Part shown: in pieces, positions 4,972-58,973 of the stretch
Position numbering within the stretch: the first letter of the stretch is position 1
Layout of the letters: each line of letters starts with the position of its first letter
NCBI GenBank assembly: GCA_028699255.1
Contig: JAQVUX010000003.1
Span: 82,654-146,653, forward strand
DNA: 64,000 nucleotides
From: Candidatus Omnitrophota bacterium
GTDB taxonomy: Bacteria; Omnitrophota; Gorgyraeia; 2-01-FULL-45-10
Direction: 5' to 3'
The notes under the pieces: model-generated
The model's database searches: none
What the model saw: only the letters and a program-made list of their open reading frames with translations
Told to the model about the DNA's origin: nothing
Position numbers and translations under genes: made by a program

Positions 4972-5760
4972 ATGTTAAAAAAACGGTTGATACCGGTTCT
5001 TTTATTGCAAAACGGGATGCTTGTTCGCAGTGAGGCTTTTAGTATACATCAGATAATCGGTAATCCGATAATCGAGGTACAGCGATTCAACCAATGGAAC
5101 GTGGATGAACTTATCTATTTGGATATAAGCCGATCGGATGATTACGACCTTCGTCGGGAAGATGGCAAGGTCCGCGGACTTAAAGATCCTCTCGTTATAT
5201 TGGAAGAGGTGAGCAAGACCTGCTTTATGCCTCTTACGTGGGGCGGCAGGATACGTACCATCGATGACATGAGACAACGGTTTTTAAGAGGGGCGGATAA
5301 GATAACTATCAATACCGCCGCGGTCGAGACGCCGGAATTGATTACGCAGGCCGCAAAGATTTTTGGCAGTCAGGCGGTTGTCGTATGTATAGACGCGAAG
5401 CGCTATGAGGGCGGGAGCCCGGAAGTTTTTATCGACGGCGGCCGTACTGCGACCGGGATGAGTCCCGAGGGTTGGGCTAAGAAAGCGGAAGGGTTTGGCG
5501 CCGGGGAGATATTACTCCAGAGTATAGATCGCGATGGCATGGGCAATGGTTATGACCTTGGCATGATACGCTCGGTAAGCGAAGCTGTTTCTATACCGGT
5601 CATAGCGCTGGGCGGAATCGGCGCTTACGGACAGTACGCGGACGGTATAAAAGCCGGAGCTTCCGCGGCCGCGGCGGCAAATATATGGCATTTTAAGGAA
5701 TTGTCCGACATGGGCGGGAAACGGGCCCTGTCGAAGAGCGGCGTAAATATAAGAATGTGA
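4972..5760 (+). CDS. hisF: HisF-like cyclase subunit (WbuZ-like, glycan context)
   Basis: 262 aa TIM-barrel HisF-like sequence (RLIPVLLLQNG...; GG...DRDGMGNGYDL...ALGGIG). Confidence 0.8.
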   Translation: MLKKRLIPVLLLQNGMLVRSEAFSIHQIIGNPIIEVQRFNQWNVDELIYLDISRSDDYDLRREDGKVRGLKDPLVILEEVSKTCFMPLTWGGRIRTIDDMRQRFLRGADKITINTAAVETPELITQAAKIFGSQAVVVCIDAKRYEGGSPEVFIDGGRTATGMSPEGWAKKAEGFGAGEILLQSIDRDGMGNGYDLGMIRSVSEAVSIPVIALGGIGAYGQYADGIKAGASAAAAANIWHFKELSDMGGKRALSKSGVNIRM

Positions 5761-55235: not shown

Positions 55236-57239
55236 ATGCCGAAATTTGCCGAGATCGCAGTAGCCCTTCCCGTAGACCGCACGTTCCACTACGCCATACC
55301 TGAAGCATTGTCGAACGACATAGCTGTAGGAAAACGCGTCTTCGTGCCTTTTCAGAATCGCGCGACAGTCGGTTATTGTGTCGGGTTATGCGATGTCGCG
55401 GATGTTAAGGACGTGAAGGCGATAATTTCCATTATCGATAAAGAGCCTCTATTGAGCGAGGAGATGCTCAAACTTACCCGATGGGTAAAGGAGAACTATT
55501 TCTGCTCATGGGGCGAAGCTATCGCGGCCGTTATACCCGCCGGGATAAAGAAGGGTAAGGAATCGATCGGCTCGAGGATAAAAGAAGCGCCCTTGTCTCC
55601 ATCGGAGGAATACGCCCCTTCGAGGCCGCACAGCCTGATGGAAGAGCAGTCGCACGCGTTAAAGTCTGTGATAGAAGCGATCGATAAACATGAGCACAGG
55701 GTCTTCCTCCTGCATGGTATAACGGCGAGCGGCAAGACCGAAGTATATTTACAGGCGATCGAGCACGTGCTTGGCGAGGGGCGGCAGACGATAGTGCTCG
55801 TTCCGGAAATATCGCTTACTCCTCAGACGATCGAGCGTTTTTCCTCGAGGTTCGGCGGCCACGTCGCCGTCATCCATTCGCGTCTCACGGCCGCGAAGAA
55901 GTTCCTGGAGTGGAAGAGGATAAAGGACGGCAAGGCAAATATCGTCGTGGGTGCGCGTTCCGCGGTATTCGCGCCATTCCGCAACCTGGGACTTATCATA
56001 ATAGACGAAGAGCACGAGACTTCCTATAAGCAGGACGATGTGCCGCGTTACCACGCGCGCGATGTCGCCGTGGAACGCGCCCGCATAAATAACTGCCCGC
56101 TTATACTGGGTAGCGCCACCCCGTCCCTGGAATCGTTTTACAAGGCGAAGGCCGGCGAATACAGGCTCGTCCGGCTCACAAAGAGGATCGACGAGCGGTT
56201 ACTGCCGAAGACGAAGATAGTCGATATGAGAATGGAACTTGCCGCGCGCCGGAGAATAATGATATTTTCCAAAGTCCTGCTCGACGCAATTGCCAATATG
56301 CTTTCGGCCGGTAAGCAGGCGATAATATTTTTAAACAGGCGCGGATTTTCGACATATATAAACTGCAAGAAATGCGGGTTCGTGGTTAAATGCAAACGAT
56401 GCGACACGGTAATGGTGTATCATTACGAGACGAAGAAGCTCATATGCCATTATTGCAATTATACGATTAATCCCCCGGATATCTGCCCCAGCTGTAAATC
56501 CGATTACATAAAATATCTGGGGCTCGGTACCGAGAAGGTGGAGAGCGAGATAAGCCGCAGTTTCCCGCACGCGAAGATAGCGAGAATGGATTCGGATACC
56601 ACCACCAAACGCGGTTCGCACGACAGGATACTCGGTGATTTCAAAGCGGGGAAGATAAACCTGCTCGTCGGCACGCAGATGATCGCCAAAGGGCTCGACT
56701 TCCCGGATGTGACTTTAGTAGGTGTCGTTTCGGCGGATGTGAGCCTGAATATCCCGGATTTCAGGGCGAGCGAGCGGACGTTTAACCTGCTTACGCAGGT
56801 CGGCGGCAGGGCGGGCCGCGGAGAAGACGGCGGGGAAGTCGTGATACAGACGTATACGCCGGAGCACTACGCTATAATCGCGGCGGCGAAGCATGATTAT
56901 CAGAAGTTTTACGATGAAGAGATCATTGAGCGTAAAGAGCTGATGTTCCCGCCGTTCATAAGCCTTACAAAGGTTACCGTCCGGGCGAGGAATGACGCGC
57001 TGGCGGCAAAGTCGGCTGAGGAATTGAAGAACGTGATAGCTACGGCCGGCCCTGAGATGCTTATCTCCGGCCCGTCACCGGCGCCGATAACCAGACTGCG
57101 TGGATACTACAGGTACAATATCATATTGAAGCACAAAGAGCGGCTCGTGATGTGCGCGCTCCTCAAAAAAGCGCTCACCGGTTTCCGTCGGCCGCACGGT
57201 GTCCTCATCGCCGTTGACGTCGACCCGGTGTCGATGTAG
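55236..57239 (+). CDS. priA: Primosomal protein N' (replication-restart helicase PriA)
   Basis: 667 aa. Walker A GITASGKTEV, DEEH, Cys-rich zinc module CKKCGF...CKRCD...CHYC...CPSC. C-terminal helicase domain. Confidence 0.9.
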   Translation: MPKFAEIAVALPVDRTFHYAIPEALSNDIAVGKRVFVPFQNRATVGYCVGLCDVADVKDVKAIISIIDKEPLLSEEMLKLTRWVKENYFCSWGEAIAAVIPAGIKKGKESIGSRIKEAPLSPSEEYAPSRPHSLMEEQSHALKSVIEAIDKHEHRVFLLHGITASGKTEVYLQAIEHVLGEGRQTIVLVPEISLTPQTIERFSSRFGGHVAVIHSRLTAAKKFLEWKRIKDGKANIVVGARSAVFAPFRNLGLIIIDEEHETSYKQDDVPRYHARDVAVERARINNCPLILGSATPSLESFYKAKAGEYRLVRLTKRIDERLLPKTKIVDMRMELAARRRIMIFSKVLLDAIANMLSAGKQAIIFLNRRGFSTYINCKKCGFVVKCKRCDTVMVYHYETKKLICHYCNYTINPPDICPSCKSDYIKYLGLGTEKVESEISRSFPHAKIARMDSDTTTKRGSHDRILGDFKAGKINLLVGTQMIAKGLDFPDVTLVGVVSADVSLNIPDFRASERTFNLLTQVGGRAGRGEDGGEVVIQTYTPEHYAIIAAAKHDYQKFYDEEIIERKELMFPPFISLTKVTVRARNDALAAKSAEELKNVIATAGPEMLISGPSPAPITRLRGYYRYNIILKHKERLVMCALLKKALTGFRRPHGVLIAVDVDPVSM

Positions 57240-57244
57240 AATGA

Positions 57245-57440
57245 GGAGGAAAATTTTTCGCTGTAGCGGCAGAATGTGCTGTATCGAGTGGTTTGTTCGG
57301 GACGCGCAATTTTTGGCCATGCAAAAAGTGCGCTCCGTAAAAGTTCTCGTACGCTGCCTCGAACTTTTAAGGCCCTCACAAACCACATCGCCACATCACA
57401 TTTCTGATTGAGCGAAAAATTTTATTGAAGGGCGGGCAGG
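57245..57440 (+). repeat. Tandem structured repeat unit 1 (~196 nt) in the priA-fmt spacer
   Basis: Starts GGAGGAAAATTTTTCG. Hairpin 57304-57333 with loop GCCATG. Conserved CTCGTACGCTGCCTCG. Ends GGGCGGGCAGG. Confidence 0.6.
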
Positions 57441-57449
57441 TAAGGATGG

Positions 57450-57650
57450 GGAGGAAAATTTTTCGTTCCCGGGAGGCATTCCCTCTCGGGGTTGGTATTC
57501 CGCAGGGACGCGAAATTTGTCAGCCATGTGAAAATTTCGCTCGAAAAAAATTGCTCGTACGCTGCCTCGCAATTTTTACGCCCTGCTCCATACCAACCCC
57601 TCGGGGCCCCTTCGACGGGAATCGAAAAATTTCCTGATGGGGCGGGCAGG
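57450..57650 (+). repeat. Tandem structured repeat unit 2 (~201 nt)
   Basis: Same 5' (GGAGGAAAATTTTTCG) and 3' (GGGCGGGCAGG) ends. Hairpin 57510-57540 has the same GCCATG loop but a different, still complementary, stem. Conserved CTCGTACGCTGCCTCG. Confidence 0.6.
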
Positions 57651-57836
57651 GGGCGTTATTGCAACGCGGGCGGAATAACCTCGCAGGTTGGCCAGGTGTT
57701 AGCGTTCAGATAACCTGCGAGGTTGGACGATTAGCGAGAGTAAATTAGCACCAGCGTCCTATTTCCACCCCGGGGTGGAAACATAGACACCTGTGGGAAT
57801 GAAATAGATAAGGTATAATCGTAGAATGCCCGGATA

Positions 57837-57999
57837 GGTGAGGGGACTACGCTTACGCGGCGACGTAAAAATCGCGAGCGGGCATGGTTCCCGAGCCAGG
57901 GTTAGCAGATATGCGAGGGAGAGCGAGCGATTTTTCTCGAGCGACATTTTTCACGCTGGGAAAAATGGAGCGGTCGGCGCGAAGCGTAGTCCCCTCACC
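57837..57999 (+). repeat. 163-bp element bounded by 27-bp imperfect terminal inverted repeats (MITE-like or long stem)
   Basis: 5' arm GGTGAGGGGACTACGCTTACGCGGCGAC (57837-57864). 3' arm GTCGGCGCGAAGCGTAGTCCCCTCACC (57973-57999). 18 bp perfect, then a 1-nt bulge and one mismatch. Interior has A5/T5 hairpins. Confidence 0.55.
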
Positions 58000-58031
58000 C
58001 AGGAGTTGGAAAGAAGAAAGCGGAGCTACGA

Positions 58032-58973
58032 ATGAACATCATATTTTTCGGCACATCAGAGTTCGCGATACCGGCGCTTCGGGCGCTCGTGGCATCCAGT
58101 CATAAGGTACTGGCCGTCGTAACACAACCCGACCGGCCGCGCGGACGGAATCTCAAGGTATCGCCATCGCCCATGAAGGCGTTGGCCGCGGCGAACGATC
58201 TGCCCGTGTTTCAACCCGTCAATGCCTCATCTACGGAGGCAGTTGACTATCTGAGGAAGCTCGGCGCGGATCTCTTCGTCGTCATATCATTCGGCCAGAT
58301 ACTGCGGCAGGACATACTCGCGATCCCCAGGCTGTATGCCGTCAATGTGCACGGTTCGCTTTTGCCCGCGTATCGCGGCGCTTCACCTACCAATCACGCG
58401 ATAATAAACGGCGATAAGACGAGCGGCGTTACGATTATCCGTATGAACGATAAGATGGACGAAGGCGATATAATATTGAAGCGCAAAACGCCGATCGGTT
58501 CGGAAGACACAAATATAACTCTGCACGAAAGGCTCTCGGAAATAGGCGCCTCCGTCCTCATGGAATTAGTCGACGCCCTCGCGAGCGGAAAGGCGGTCGC
58601 TTTTGAAAAACAGGACGACGCTACGGCTACATATGCGCCGAAACTGAAGAAAGAGGACGGCGCCATCGACTGGAATGAACCGGCCGCGAAGATTCATAAC
58701 AAGATCCGCGGCCTTCTGCCGTGGCCCGGCGCGTACACCTATTATAACGGAAAGATACTGAAAGTCCTGAAAGCCGCGCCTGTTTCTTCGGGTGCGGAGG
58801 CCGCAAAACCGGGCGAGGTCGTGAATATCTCCGACGATGCGGGTGTCGTTGTCCGTACGGGCTCAGGGGATATCGTCATGCAATATCTACAGCTCGAGGG
58901 TAAGAAGGATATGACCTCCACCGCATTCGTGCGCGGCCACAGGATCGCCCGCGGGTATACATTCGGTAAATAA
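58032..58973 (+). CDS. fmt: Methionyl-tRNA formyltransferase
   Basis: 313 aa. IIFFGTSEFA, HGSLLPAYRGASP(T)NHAIING motif. C-terminal domain. Confidence 0.85.
   Translation: MNIIFFGTSEFAIPALRALVASSHKVLAVVTQPDRPRGRNLKVSPSPMKALAAANDLPVFQPVNASSTEAVDYLRKLGADLFVVISFGQILRQDILAIPRLYAVNVHGSLLPAYRGASPTNHAIINGDKTSGVTIIRMNDKMDEGDIILKRKTPIGSEDTNITLHERLSEIGASVLMELVDALASGKAVAFEKQDDATATYAPKLKKEDGAIDWNEPAAKIHNKIRGLLPWPGAYTYYNGKILKVLKAAPVSSGAEAAKPGEVVNISDDAGVVVRTGSGDIVMQYLQLEGKKDMTSTAFVRGHRIARGYTFGK

Follow-up and report, generated by a model that had tools for sequence, protein, structure and literature searches.

Bacterial intergenic regions harbor several kinds of short palindromic DNA. The repetitive extragenic palindromic (REP) sequences of Enterobacteria, with their REPIN doublets and the bacterial interspersed mosaic elements (BIMEs), are found in both orientations at gene ends and between cistrons, in mosaic clusters with other motifs; these palindromes, of 20-40 nt, carry a GTAG-type 5' tetranucleotide, number in the hundreds and come with a RAYT (REP-associated tyrosine transposase), and, when co-transcribed, REP-type hairpins stabilize the upstream mRNA. 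Miniature inverted-repeat transposable elements (MITEs), such as the Correia elements of Neisseria, ERIC, RUP and BOX, are 100-250 nt long, have terminal inverted repeats and are dispersed in intergenic DNA near gene boundaries, with subfamilies, modular variants and presence/absence differences at orthologous sites. The attC sites of integrons (for example, the VCRs of Vibrio) are imperfect palindromes that directly follow the stop codon of a co-directional open reading frame (ORF), vary freely in sequence while conserving the pairing and, like the CTX-phi attP hairpin and REP with RAYT, function as folded single-stranded DNA (ssDNA). Here we analyze the 792-nt spacer between priA and fmt in a 64,000-nt stretch of DNA (hereafter, the window, to which all coordinates without a locus name refer) from a Candidatus Omnitrophota bacterium (GenBank assembly GCA_028699255.1, contig JAQVUX010000003.1, positions 82,654 to 146,653). 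The best explanation of this spacer is that it is a mosaic cluster of interspersed palindromic repeats, a kind of repeat that is already known, formed here by members of a previously undescribed family of ~180-nt elements.

The spacer between priA and fmt contains copies of a long palindromic element

An inspection of the window from its letters alone (hereafter, the sequence-only reading) had singled out this spacer as a gene-free region with two tandem, structured units. The flanking genes are confirmed by Pfam, and homologues of Fmt bear out the assignment of the window to Omnitrophota. The spacer is indeed the sole large ORF-free stretch of the window, the remaining apparent gaps each containing a long ORF on the plus strand. 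The compactness of the window is equally real, although the largest true gap elsewhere is 141 nt, rather than less than 110 nt as had been stated. The features said to be shared by the two units were all located: the 5' box GGAGGAAAATTTTTCG at 57245 and 57450, the internal box CTCGTACGCTGCCTCG at 57346 and 57554, the 3' box GGGCGGGCAGG at 57430 and 57640, and the hairpins with the loop GCCATG and the stems given for them at 57304-57333 and 57510-57540.

What had been missed is that an outer stem and long arms close each unit, so that the unit in its entirety makes up a single hairpin with a three-way junction. Each is a complete ~180-nt imperfect palindrome bounded by TAAAATTTTTCG/CGAAAAATTTTA, in which a long stem is capped by the junction, and the junction carries two A/T-stemmed hairpins with the loops GCCATG and TCGTACGCTGCCTC; the internal box CTCGTACGCTGCCTCG is the loop of the second of these hairpins. 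A third, diverged copy, likewise overlooked, lies inverted at 57837-57999. The repeats and structure in the spacer are not a matter of chance, given the covariance model scores of units 1 and 2 (164 and 142 bits) and the folding z-scores, which are -3.2 for unit 1, -3.3 for unit 2 and, for the region 57650-58031 that contains unit 3, -4.9 on the plus strand and -6.8 on the minus strand. As the sequences of the dispersed copies described below show, the stems of units 1 and 2 differ because the units belong to two subfamilies, A and B, rather than through divergence in place.

Distribution and anatomy of the family

One genome per species was scanned for the pattern GCCATG-N15-45-TCGTACGCTGCCTC. 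The exact loops gave ~30 matches with a span of 45-46 nt, all in metagenome-assembled genomes (MAGs) of Candidatus Omnitrophota, with up to 13 in one MAG; the remaining matches had other spacings, came from other taxa and were present in numbers close to the chance rate that we estimated. A looser pattern identified 71 metagenome loci, with about one match per 100 kb on large contigs. Covariance model R1, nhmmer and the looser scan together yielded 105 distinct copies, of which 74 are full length, at ~90 Omnitrophota loci (individual loci are denoted L001, L002 and so on). The search of related genomes and metagenomes with a covariance model, which the sequence-only reading had proposed as a check, thus recovered homologous, covarying copies, and, as far as our searches reach, the family is confined to Omnitrophota; a scan of viral contigs and a plasmid search produced no family match.

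The statement that the spacer lacks signatures of known RNAs holds as well. At the gathering score, no Rfam family matched anywhere in the window; permissive settings added only hits of chance level (E >= 1) in 57100-58150, no Rfam hit fell on the elements of 14 related loci, and tRNA and tmRNA scans were also negative. Nor is the family a known REP or MITE, the example of an Rfam hit that the sequence-only reading had named as a refutation, but the elements nonetheless behave in a REP/MITE-like manner. No description of the family was found in the literature. Several metagenome contigs end inside copies, and contigs from three samples (L001, L055 and L059) start 70-130 nt upstream of fmt, at a point that in L001 and L055 maps inside unit 3; these repeats fragment assemblies of Omnitrophota genomes.

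Full elements are 175-235 nt long and have the termini (T)AAAATTTTTCG ... CGAAAAATTTT(A), followed inward by long imperfect arms. The bounding sequences TAAAATTTTTCG and CGAAAAATTTTA are common to subfamilies A, B and C, and the interiors differ. The outer stem reads U5CG/CGA5 and is followed by TTTT; the arms are of type A (GAATGTGCTGTGTCRAKTGG...) or type B (GGAATTCCCTYTCGGGRTTGTGCC...), and the semi-variable segments between termini and arms, considered as putative guide-like loops, are either semi-conserved (TRYAGCAGY) or partly paired. The consensus inner plan is GGG-AC-hairpin 1-TCGRT-hairpin 2-AACG-CCC, with a conserved 2x2 pyrimidine mismatch (TC/TC, which is GA/GA on the opposite strand) and with AAAATTT-type tracts, six per element, at the bases of all three helices. 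The TC/TC mismatch and the loops are kept in both orientations.

Subfamily C, of ~235 nt, has the same termini and plan, with a different interior, and is usually found inverted directly after an A or B copy. In distant variants (L061 and L062), the termini, arms and junction topology are kept and the inner hairpins are swapped. Tandem, tail-to-tail, stacked-arm and composite forms are seen as well (L006, L039, L002b, L017 and L030). Five copies in one MAG have in common a 28-nt extra hairpin that is missing from the orthologous copy in another species, a pattern that points to spread or gene conversion within that genome.

Pairing is maintained through compensatory changes

Pairing was counted in 37 copies over 44 pairs (1617 cells), and RNAalifold was applied as well. 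Altogether, 95.9% of the cells are paired; compensatory double changes are found in 28 of the 44 pairs (199 cells), and none of 500 shuffles matched the observed pairing and covariation values. When the partners were slid by one to three columns, the paired fraction was 37-47% (~45% after one column). The compensatory stem changes on which the sequence-only reading had relied are therefore genuine: this is, in generic terms, a structured single-strand element (RNA or ssDNA), in which half-site sequences vary freely, complementarity is kept and several variants coexist per genome.

The interpretation built on these changes stands only in part. The pairing is clearly maintained, but wobble pairs are nearly absent (G.U in 7 of 1617 cells, or 0.4%, on the sense strand and ~1.7% on the other strand), so that covariation by itself is no pointer to RNA, and pairing of ssDNA or arm-to-arm correction is equally compatible with the data. 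Template-switching correction of one arm of a quasi-palindrome against the other would yield the same Watson-Crick-only pattern. Mismatches of the A.C type, which are G.U on the other strand, occur in ~28 cells, compared to 5 to 7 cells with G.U; this excess and the TC/TC mismatch are only suggestive with regard to the folding strand. The complement of the sense strand folds better by 7.5 kcal/mol, in 36 of the 37 copies, but shuffled sequences show a difference of 5.4 kcal/mol in the same direction, so that the effect is mostly one of base composition and offers no firm choice between the strands.

Genomic context and orthologous sites

Copies are invariably intergenic and occur in both orientations, and the neighbors examined are housekeeping genes, namely, priA, fmt, leuA, hypF, a pilT-like ATPase gene, xer, an lpxL fusion, kdtA, GAPDH and tRNA synthetase genes. 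Among the 62 full-length copies with an identifiable 5' neighbor, 48 (77%, sense orientation) are preceded by a co-directional stop codon, at a median offset of -4, and the other 14 face a gene start; 41 of the 48 sense copies are located no more than 15 nt from the stop codon. By our own count, the stop codon coincides with the TAA of the terminus in 27 cases and lies 2-14 nt upstream in 12 more. The 3' gap, with a median of 200 nt, often accommodates further elements. Tightly wedged copies read "TAA-element-ribosome-binding site-ATG", with the ribosome-binding site of the next gene at the position of the tail, which suggests a present or former ribosome-binding function for the purine-rich tail with its GGGCGGGCAGG box.

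Three further ideas were rejected. A strict replication-strand pattern of the IS200/IS605 kind is at odds with the orientation relative to the local GC skew, which splits 24 to 11, and with the occurrence of opposite orientations within one locus. Protein coding was considered because both units contain an ORF beginning M(R/G)RKIFR, but the two do not keep the same frame across hairpin 1, and it also counts against coding that other copies contain in-frame stops or start with the upstream stop codon. Finally, the motif AAAATTTT does not qualify as a natural target or a general junction motif, with only 4 occurrences in the window; a related terminus motif maps almost solely to the two elements, although some empty sites nonetheless read TAAAAAATTT.

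A gene for an Xer-like tyrosine recombinase (~290 aa) is located directly 5' of an element in L002 (1626-2513), L039 (1773-2660), L020 (3994-4875) and L054 (6597-7469), that is, in two independent genomic contexts that include both paralogues of one MAG. In L020, two inverted copies stand on either side of a gene for an HNH endonuclease.

All 10 relatives examined have a long spacer between priA and fmt (225-790 nt), and a family member is detectable in 8 of these, with varying orientation, number and subfamily; L062 has only a variant that shares the termini, and L089 has no family member, only other hairpin modules. Presence/absence at orthologous sites, as in MITEs, was observed in two places. 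At the 3' end of the GAPDH gene, which was compared between L089 and L055, L058 and L056, the site is filled by an element in L089, whereas L055 and L058 carry a canonical A-tract/GC-stem/TTTTTAC terminator followed by a TTGACA-N17-TATCAT promoter. The junction behind a gene for a 189-aa protein is empty in L129 (94% protein identity) and is occupied by a B copy in L014 and L071 and by an A copy in L107. Another orthologous junction holds an A copy in L134 and a C copy in L131.

Nature of the elements

With a probability that we put at slightly better than even (about 0.55), the elements are non-autonomous and selfish in origin, belong to the REP/BIME or MITE kind, accumulate behind stop codons and, being transcribed along with their neighbors, serve as stable hairpins at 3' ends or between cistrons. 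They would be, or would once have been, mobile DNA settling directly behind stop codons, in the slot where relatives carry an ordinary intrinsic terminator; each new copy would join the older ones, either in tandem or in inverted orientation, and piles would arise, of which the 790-bp spacer between priA and fmt would be one. The selected pairing would be that between the two arms of one strand. Because most copies are sense-oriented behind a gene, they are probably co-transcribed, and a transcribed copy could fold into a highly stable hairpin, at the 3' end or between cistrons, by which cistrons are kept apart and stabilized, as they are by REP in E. coli.

Several observations weigh against this explanation. 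Among the 584 flanking ORFs, there is no transposase, RAYT or other candidate mobilizing gene, and clustering of these ORFs produced only orthologous housekeeping genes and no partner protein. Copy pairs within a genome are at most ~90% identical, which gives no hint of recent bursts. Direct repeats of at least 7 nt flank 12% of the copies, compared to 4% in mismatched-flank controls; a target-site duplication looks convincing only in L095, L015 and L072 and is at best marginal overall. Orthologous copies are conserved at least as well as the adjacent coding DNA (98% vs 83% and 84% vs 72%), which could mean purifying selection at the level of the host, not selfish persistence, or else recent re-insertion at hot spots. 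A selected RNA would not usually be so poor in wobble pairs, and the RNA role is putative. Finally, the termini form a weak A-U stem with four U, not a canonical terminator. A terminator scan called none at the 3' end of any unit, its single hit in the spacer being an internal stem of unit 2, and promoter and terminator scans showed no enrichment.

Compared with the systems outlined at the outset, the family shares with REP/BIME the location at gene ends and between cistrons in both orientations and the mosaic clusters with other motifs, here a 24-nt palindrome, other hairpin modules and subfamily C. It differs from them in a length five to eight times that of REP, in the three-way junction with conserved loops, in termini that lack a GTAG-type 5' tetranucleotide, in the exact stop-codon register, in tens rather than hundreds of copies per genome, and in that no RAYT gene was seen in the flanks, to which the search for RAYT was limited. 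The terminal inverted repeats, the small size, the dispersal of the 105 copies in intergenic DNA near gene boundaries, the subfamilies and modular variants, and the presence/absence at orthologous sites are all MITE-like. Unlike MITEs, however, the elements have no clear target-site duplication and no near-identical copies; no parent insertion sequence or transposase with their termini was found among the flanking ORFs; and their interior is under a strong pairing constraint, with conserved loops, that ordinary MITEs do not experience.

The position right after the stop codon of a co-directional ORF, the free sequence with conserved pairing and the putative function as a folded single strand recall integron attC sites, but the R''/R' core sites (RYYYAAC/GTTRRRY) are lacking, the termini being AAAATTTTTCG; there is no integrase (IntI) or cassette array, the neighbors are core housekeeping genes, and the element is longer and has a three-way junction. 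A bidirectional intrinsic terminator would present, right behind the stop codon, the same order of parts, an A-tract, a hairpin and a T-tract (AAAA-...-TTTTAC), and relatives have a true terminator in that very slot, but here the base of the stem is A-U rich instead of G+C rich, only four U follow instead of at least five T, and the hairpin, of ~170 nt, contains a junction. The traits that set the family apart are the three-way junction with invariant loops, the termini that supply the stop codon and the occupation of the terminator slot.

Among the alternatives, the most viable, even if somewhat unlikely, is that the fold is selected only as ssDNA, on which a recombinase or HUH nuclease encoded in another part of the genome would act, with no gain for the host. 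The Watson-Crick-only pairing, with the low wobble frequencies on both strands, would be accounted for, and so would the A/T-rich loop-proximal parts of the stems, the termini that are common to all subfamilies while the interiors differ, and the occupation of the same junction by different subfamilies in different genomes, suggestive of hot spots. Hairpin 1, with 12-nt arms and a 6-nt center, is laid out like the core site of a tyrosine recombinase, and an Xer-like gene directly precedes a copy in two independent contexts. However, these xer genes look like an ordinary housekeeping pair, and the copies, which are old (at most 90% identity within a genome), have no dedicated recombinase or nuclease linked to them. 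A constraint at the transcript level would account at least as well for the orientation bias of 48 to 14 and for the exact stop-codon register, and both orientations preserve the TC/TC mismatch and the loops.

We consider it decidedly unlikely that the element is a new kind of site-specific module that recognizes, or is selected for, the exact position of the stop codon. Such a module could be mobile DNA that lacks a transposase and is inserted, in the form of a folded single strand, by an Xer-like tyrosine recombinase of the host, akin to attC or CTX-phi but dispersed among core genes. Alternatively, it could be an RNA device with an outer stem that is melted by the terminating ribosome; if so, the hairpin would hold the upstream stop codon and the downstream ribosome-binding site close together, and translational coupling would survive a 180-nt insertion.

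An action as double-stranded DNA or an extruded cruciform, that is, as a binding or topological site for gyrase, IHF/HU-like or junction-binding proteins of the sort that BIMEs have been proposed to provide at gene ends in E. coli, is improbable: the placement at the 3' ends of genes, the two orientations, the six AAAATTT-type tracts at helix bases, the palindromes nested within palindromes and the lack of wobble pairs would all agree with it, but half-sites that change freely with complementarity kept fit hairpin pairing and not the recognition of a fixed duplex, and a sense bias of 77% is unexpected for a symmetric DNA site. There is very little chance that the units are what the sequence-only reading took them for, tandem small RNA genes or a cis-acting riboregulator specific to this locus, such as a structured fmt leader: the strong covariation, the preservation in most relatives examined of a long element-bearing spacer between priA and fmt, and the promoter-like site near the end of priA, from which transcripts would start at unit 1, speak for it, but the dispersed distribution contradicts it, with 105 distinct copies in both orientations between unrelated housekeeping genes and with the element behind dozens of such genes (leuA, hypF, pilT-like, xer, lpxL, kdtA, GAPDH and tRNA synthetase genes) rather than at one gene or operon in a fixed orientation, with orientation, number and subfamily differing among relatives even at priA-fmt, where L089 has no element, with no conserved promoter or terminator flanking the units, and with no match in Rfam.

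Layout of the spacer and other features

Table 1. Features of the priA-fmt spacer and related modules at other loci
Feature	Location	Strand	Evidence and remarks
priA	55236..57239	+	Pfam PriA_3primeBD, DEAD, PriA_C, Zn_ribbon_PriA
Promoter-like TTGACG-17-TAGAAT	57214..57242	+	Consensus scan, 10/12 matches; overlaps final priA codons and stop
Unit 1, subfamily A	57248..57426	+	Covariance model 164 bits, E=1.5e-38; fold; inverted repeats I8, I16
Unit 1, termini/outer stem	57250-57262 paired with 57411-57423	+	AAAATTTTTCGCT with AGCGAAAAATTTT
Unit 1, arms		+	GAATGTGCTGTATCGAGTGG / CCACATCGCCACATCACATT
Unit 1, hairpins 1 and 2	57304-57333; 57339-57368	+	Loops GCCATG; TCGTACGCTGCCTC
Purine-rich tail and spacer	57427..57452	+	GGGCGGGCAGG at 57430-57440, then GGGGAGG
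Unit 2, subfamily B	57453..57635	+	Covariance model 142 bits, E=6.3e-33; fold; inverted repeats I4, I10
Unit 2, outer stem	57456-57470 paired with 57618-57632	+	
Unit 2, arms		+	GGCATTCCCTCTCGGGGTTGGTA / TACCAACCCCTCGGGGCCCC
Unit 2, hairpins 1 and 2	57510-57540; 57546-57577	+	
Second tail box GGGCGGGCAGG	57640..57650	+	Sequence match
Separate hairpin module	57677..57724	.	13-nt perfect arms AACCTCGCAGGTT / AACCTGCGAGGTT; inverted repeat I11
24-nt perfect palindrome ATTTCCACCCCGGGGTGGAAA	57759..57782	.	Inverted repeat I21
Unit 3, degenerate inverted member	57837..57999	-	Covariance model match 57843-57993, 33 bits, E=1.7e-5; inverted repeats I1, I2, I7; fold
Unit 3, outer arms	57837-57854; 57982-57999	-	18 nt, perfect
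fmt	58032..58973	+	Pfam Formyl_trans_N, Formyl_trans_C
Unrelated GGGATGGGGGTGYCGCCGC module	L058 5790-5985; L054 5435-5620; partly L060 3690-3990	- in L054	No Rfam match
GGCAGGACCCG box	L056 5968-6003; L054 ~5405-5450; L058 5955-6003	- in L054	

The stop codon of priA, TAG, lies 8 nt 5' of unit 1 (Table 1). A sigma-70-like sequence, TTGACG-N17-TA(G/A)AAT, is found in the same place in L056, L058 and L060, with the priA stop codon forming part of the -10 box. If real, it would be a promoter of fmt within the 3' end of priA, with transcripts beginning at about the first base of unit 1; the evidence is weak because the site overlaps the conserved VDVDP codons and is absent in L062 and L063.

Unit 3 contains two A/T-stemmed inner hairpins and has no canonical termini; it is similar by blastn to the cores of L054, L085 and L118 and occupies the position of the inverted subfamily-C copies in the relatives L061 and L063. 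The 24-nt palindrome ATTTCCACCCCGGGGTGGAAA is a short dispersed repeat in its own right, found also in L129 (twice), L074, L051, L123, L002, L060 and L075, usually within a few tens of nucleotides of a long element, resulting in BIME-like mosaics. A module resembling the separate hairpin at 57677-57724 is present in the priA-fmt spacer of the relative L089.

This hairpin, with the arm AACCTCGCAGGTT, is related to another conserved module, CACCGCCGMGG ... CCKCGGCGGTG, which is located after stop codons in L058 (5370-5430), L089 (8680-8735) and L064 (downstream of 8557). A second, unrelated long-hairpin module (GGGATGGGGGTGYCGCCGC ... CAATYCTGGCGGMC), followed by a GACAGGACCC box, lies upstream of fmt and kdtA. 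In addition, a box of the form GGCAGGACCCG(T/A)AAAAATTT(T)AGGAG-N5-ATG, a solo terminus-like half abutting the ribosome-binding site, is found directly upstream of start codons.

In the window as a whole, all 52 predicted genes are on the plus strand and are compactly arranged, with overlapping stop and start codons common between adjacent genes; the GC skew is positive throughout (0.07-0.20), and no tRNA was found in the 64 kb. Elsewhere, a 6S RNA (Rfam, 73.6 bits) was identified in L024 (538-699) and a tRNA in L051 (1060-1131), both unrelated to the element.

Implications

Omnitrophota are an uncultured phylum with compact genomes, and apparently nothing has been described on their non-coding DNA. 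The family provides a well-defined, strongly covarying motif of ~180 nt with a calibrated model that can be used for annotating Omnitrophota genomes; it explains recurrent assembly breaks and keeps its copies from being reported, one at a time, as novel small RNAs. With its stop-codon register, the replacement of terminators at orthologous sites and the junction with invariant loops, the family is a good system for studying how streamlined genomes tolerate palindromic repeats and how these are targeted to their sites, and it is equally suited for asking whether such repeats take over the roles of terminators or stabilizers of mRNA.

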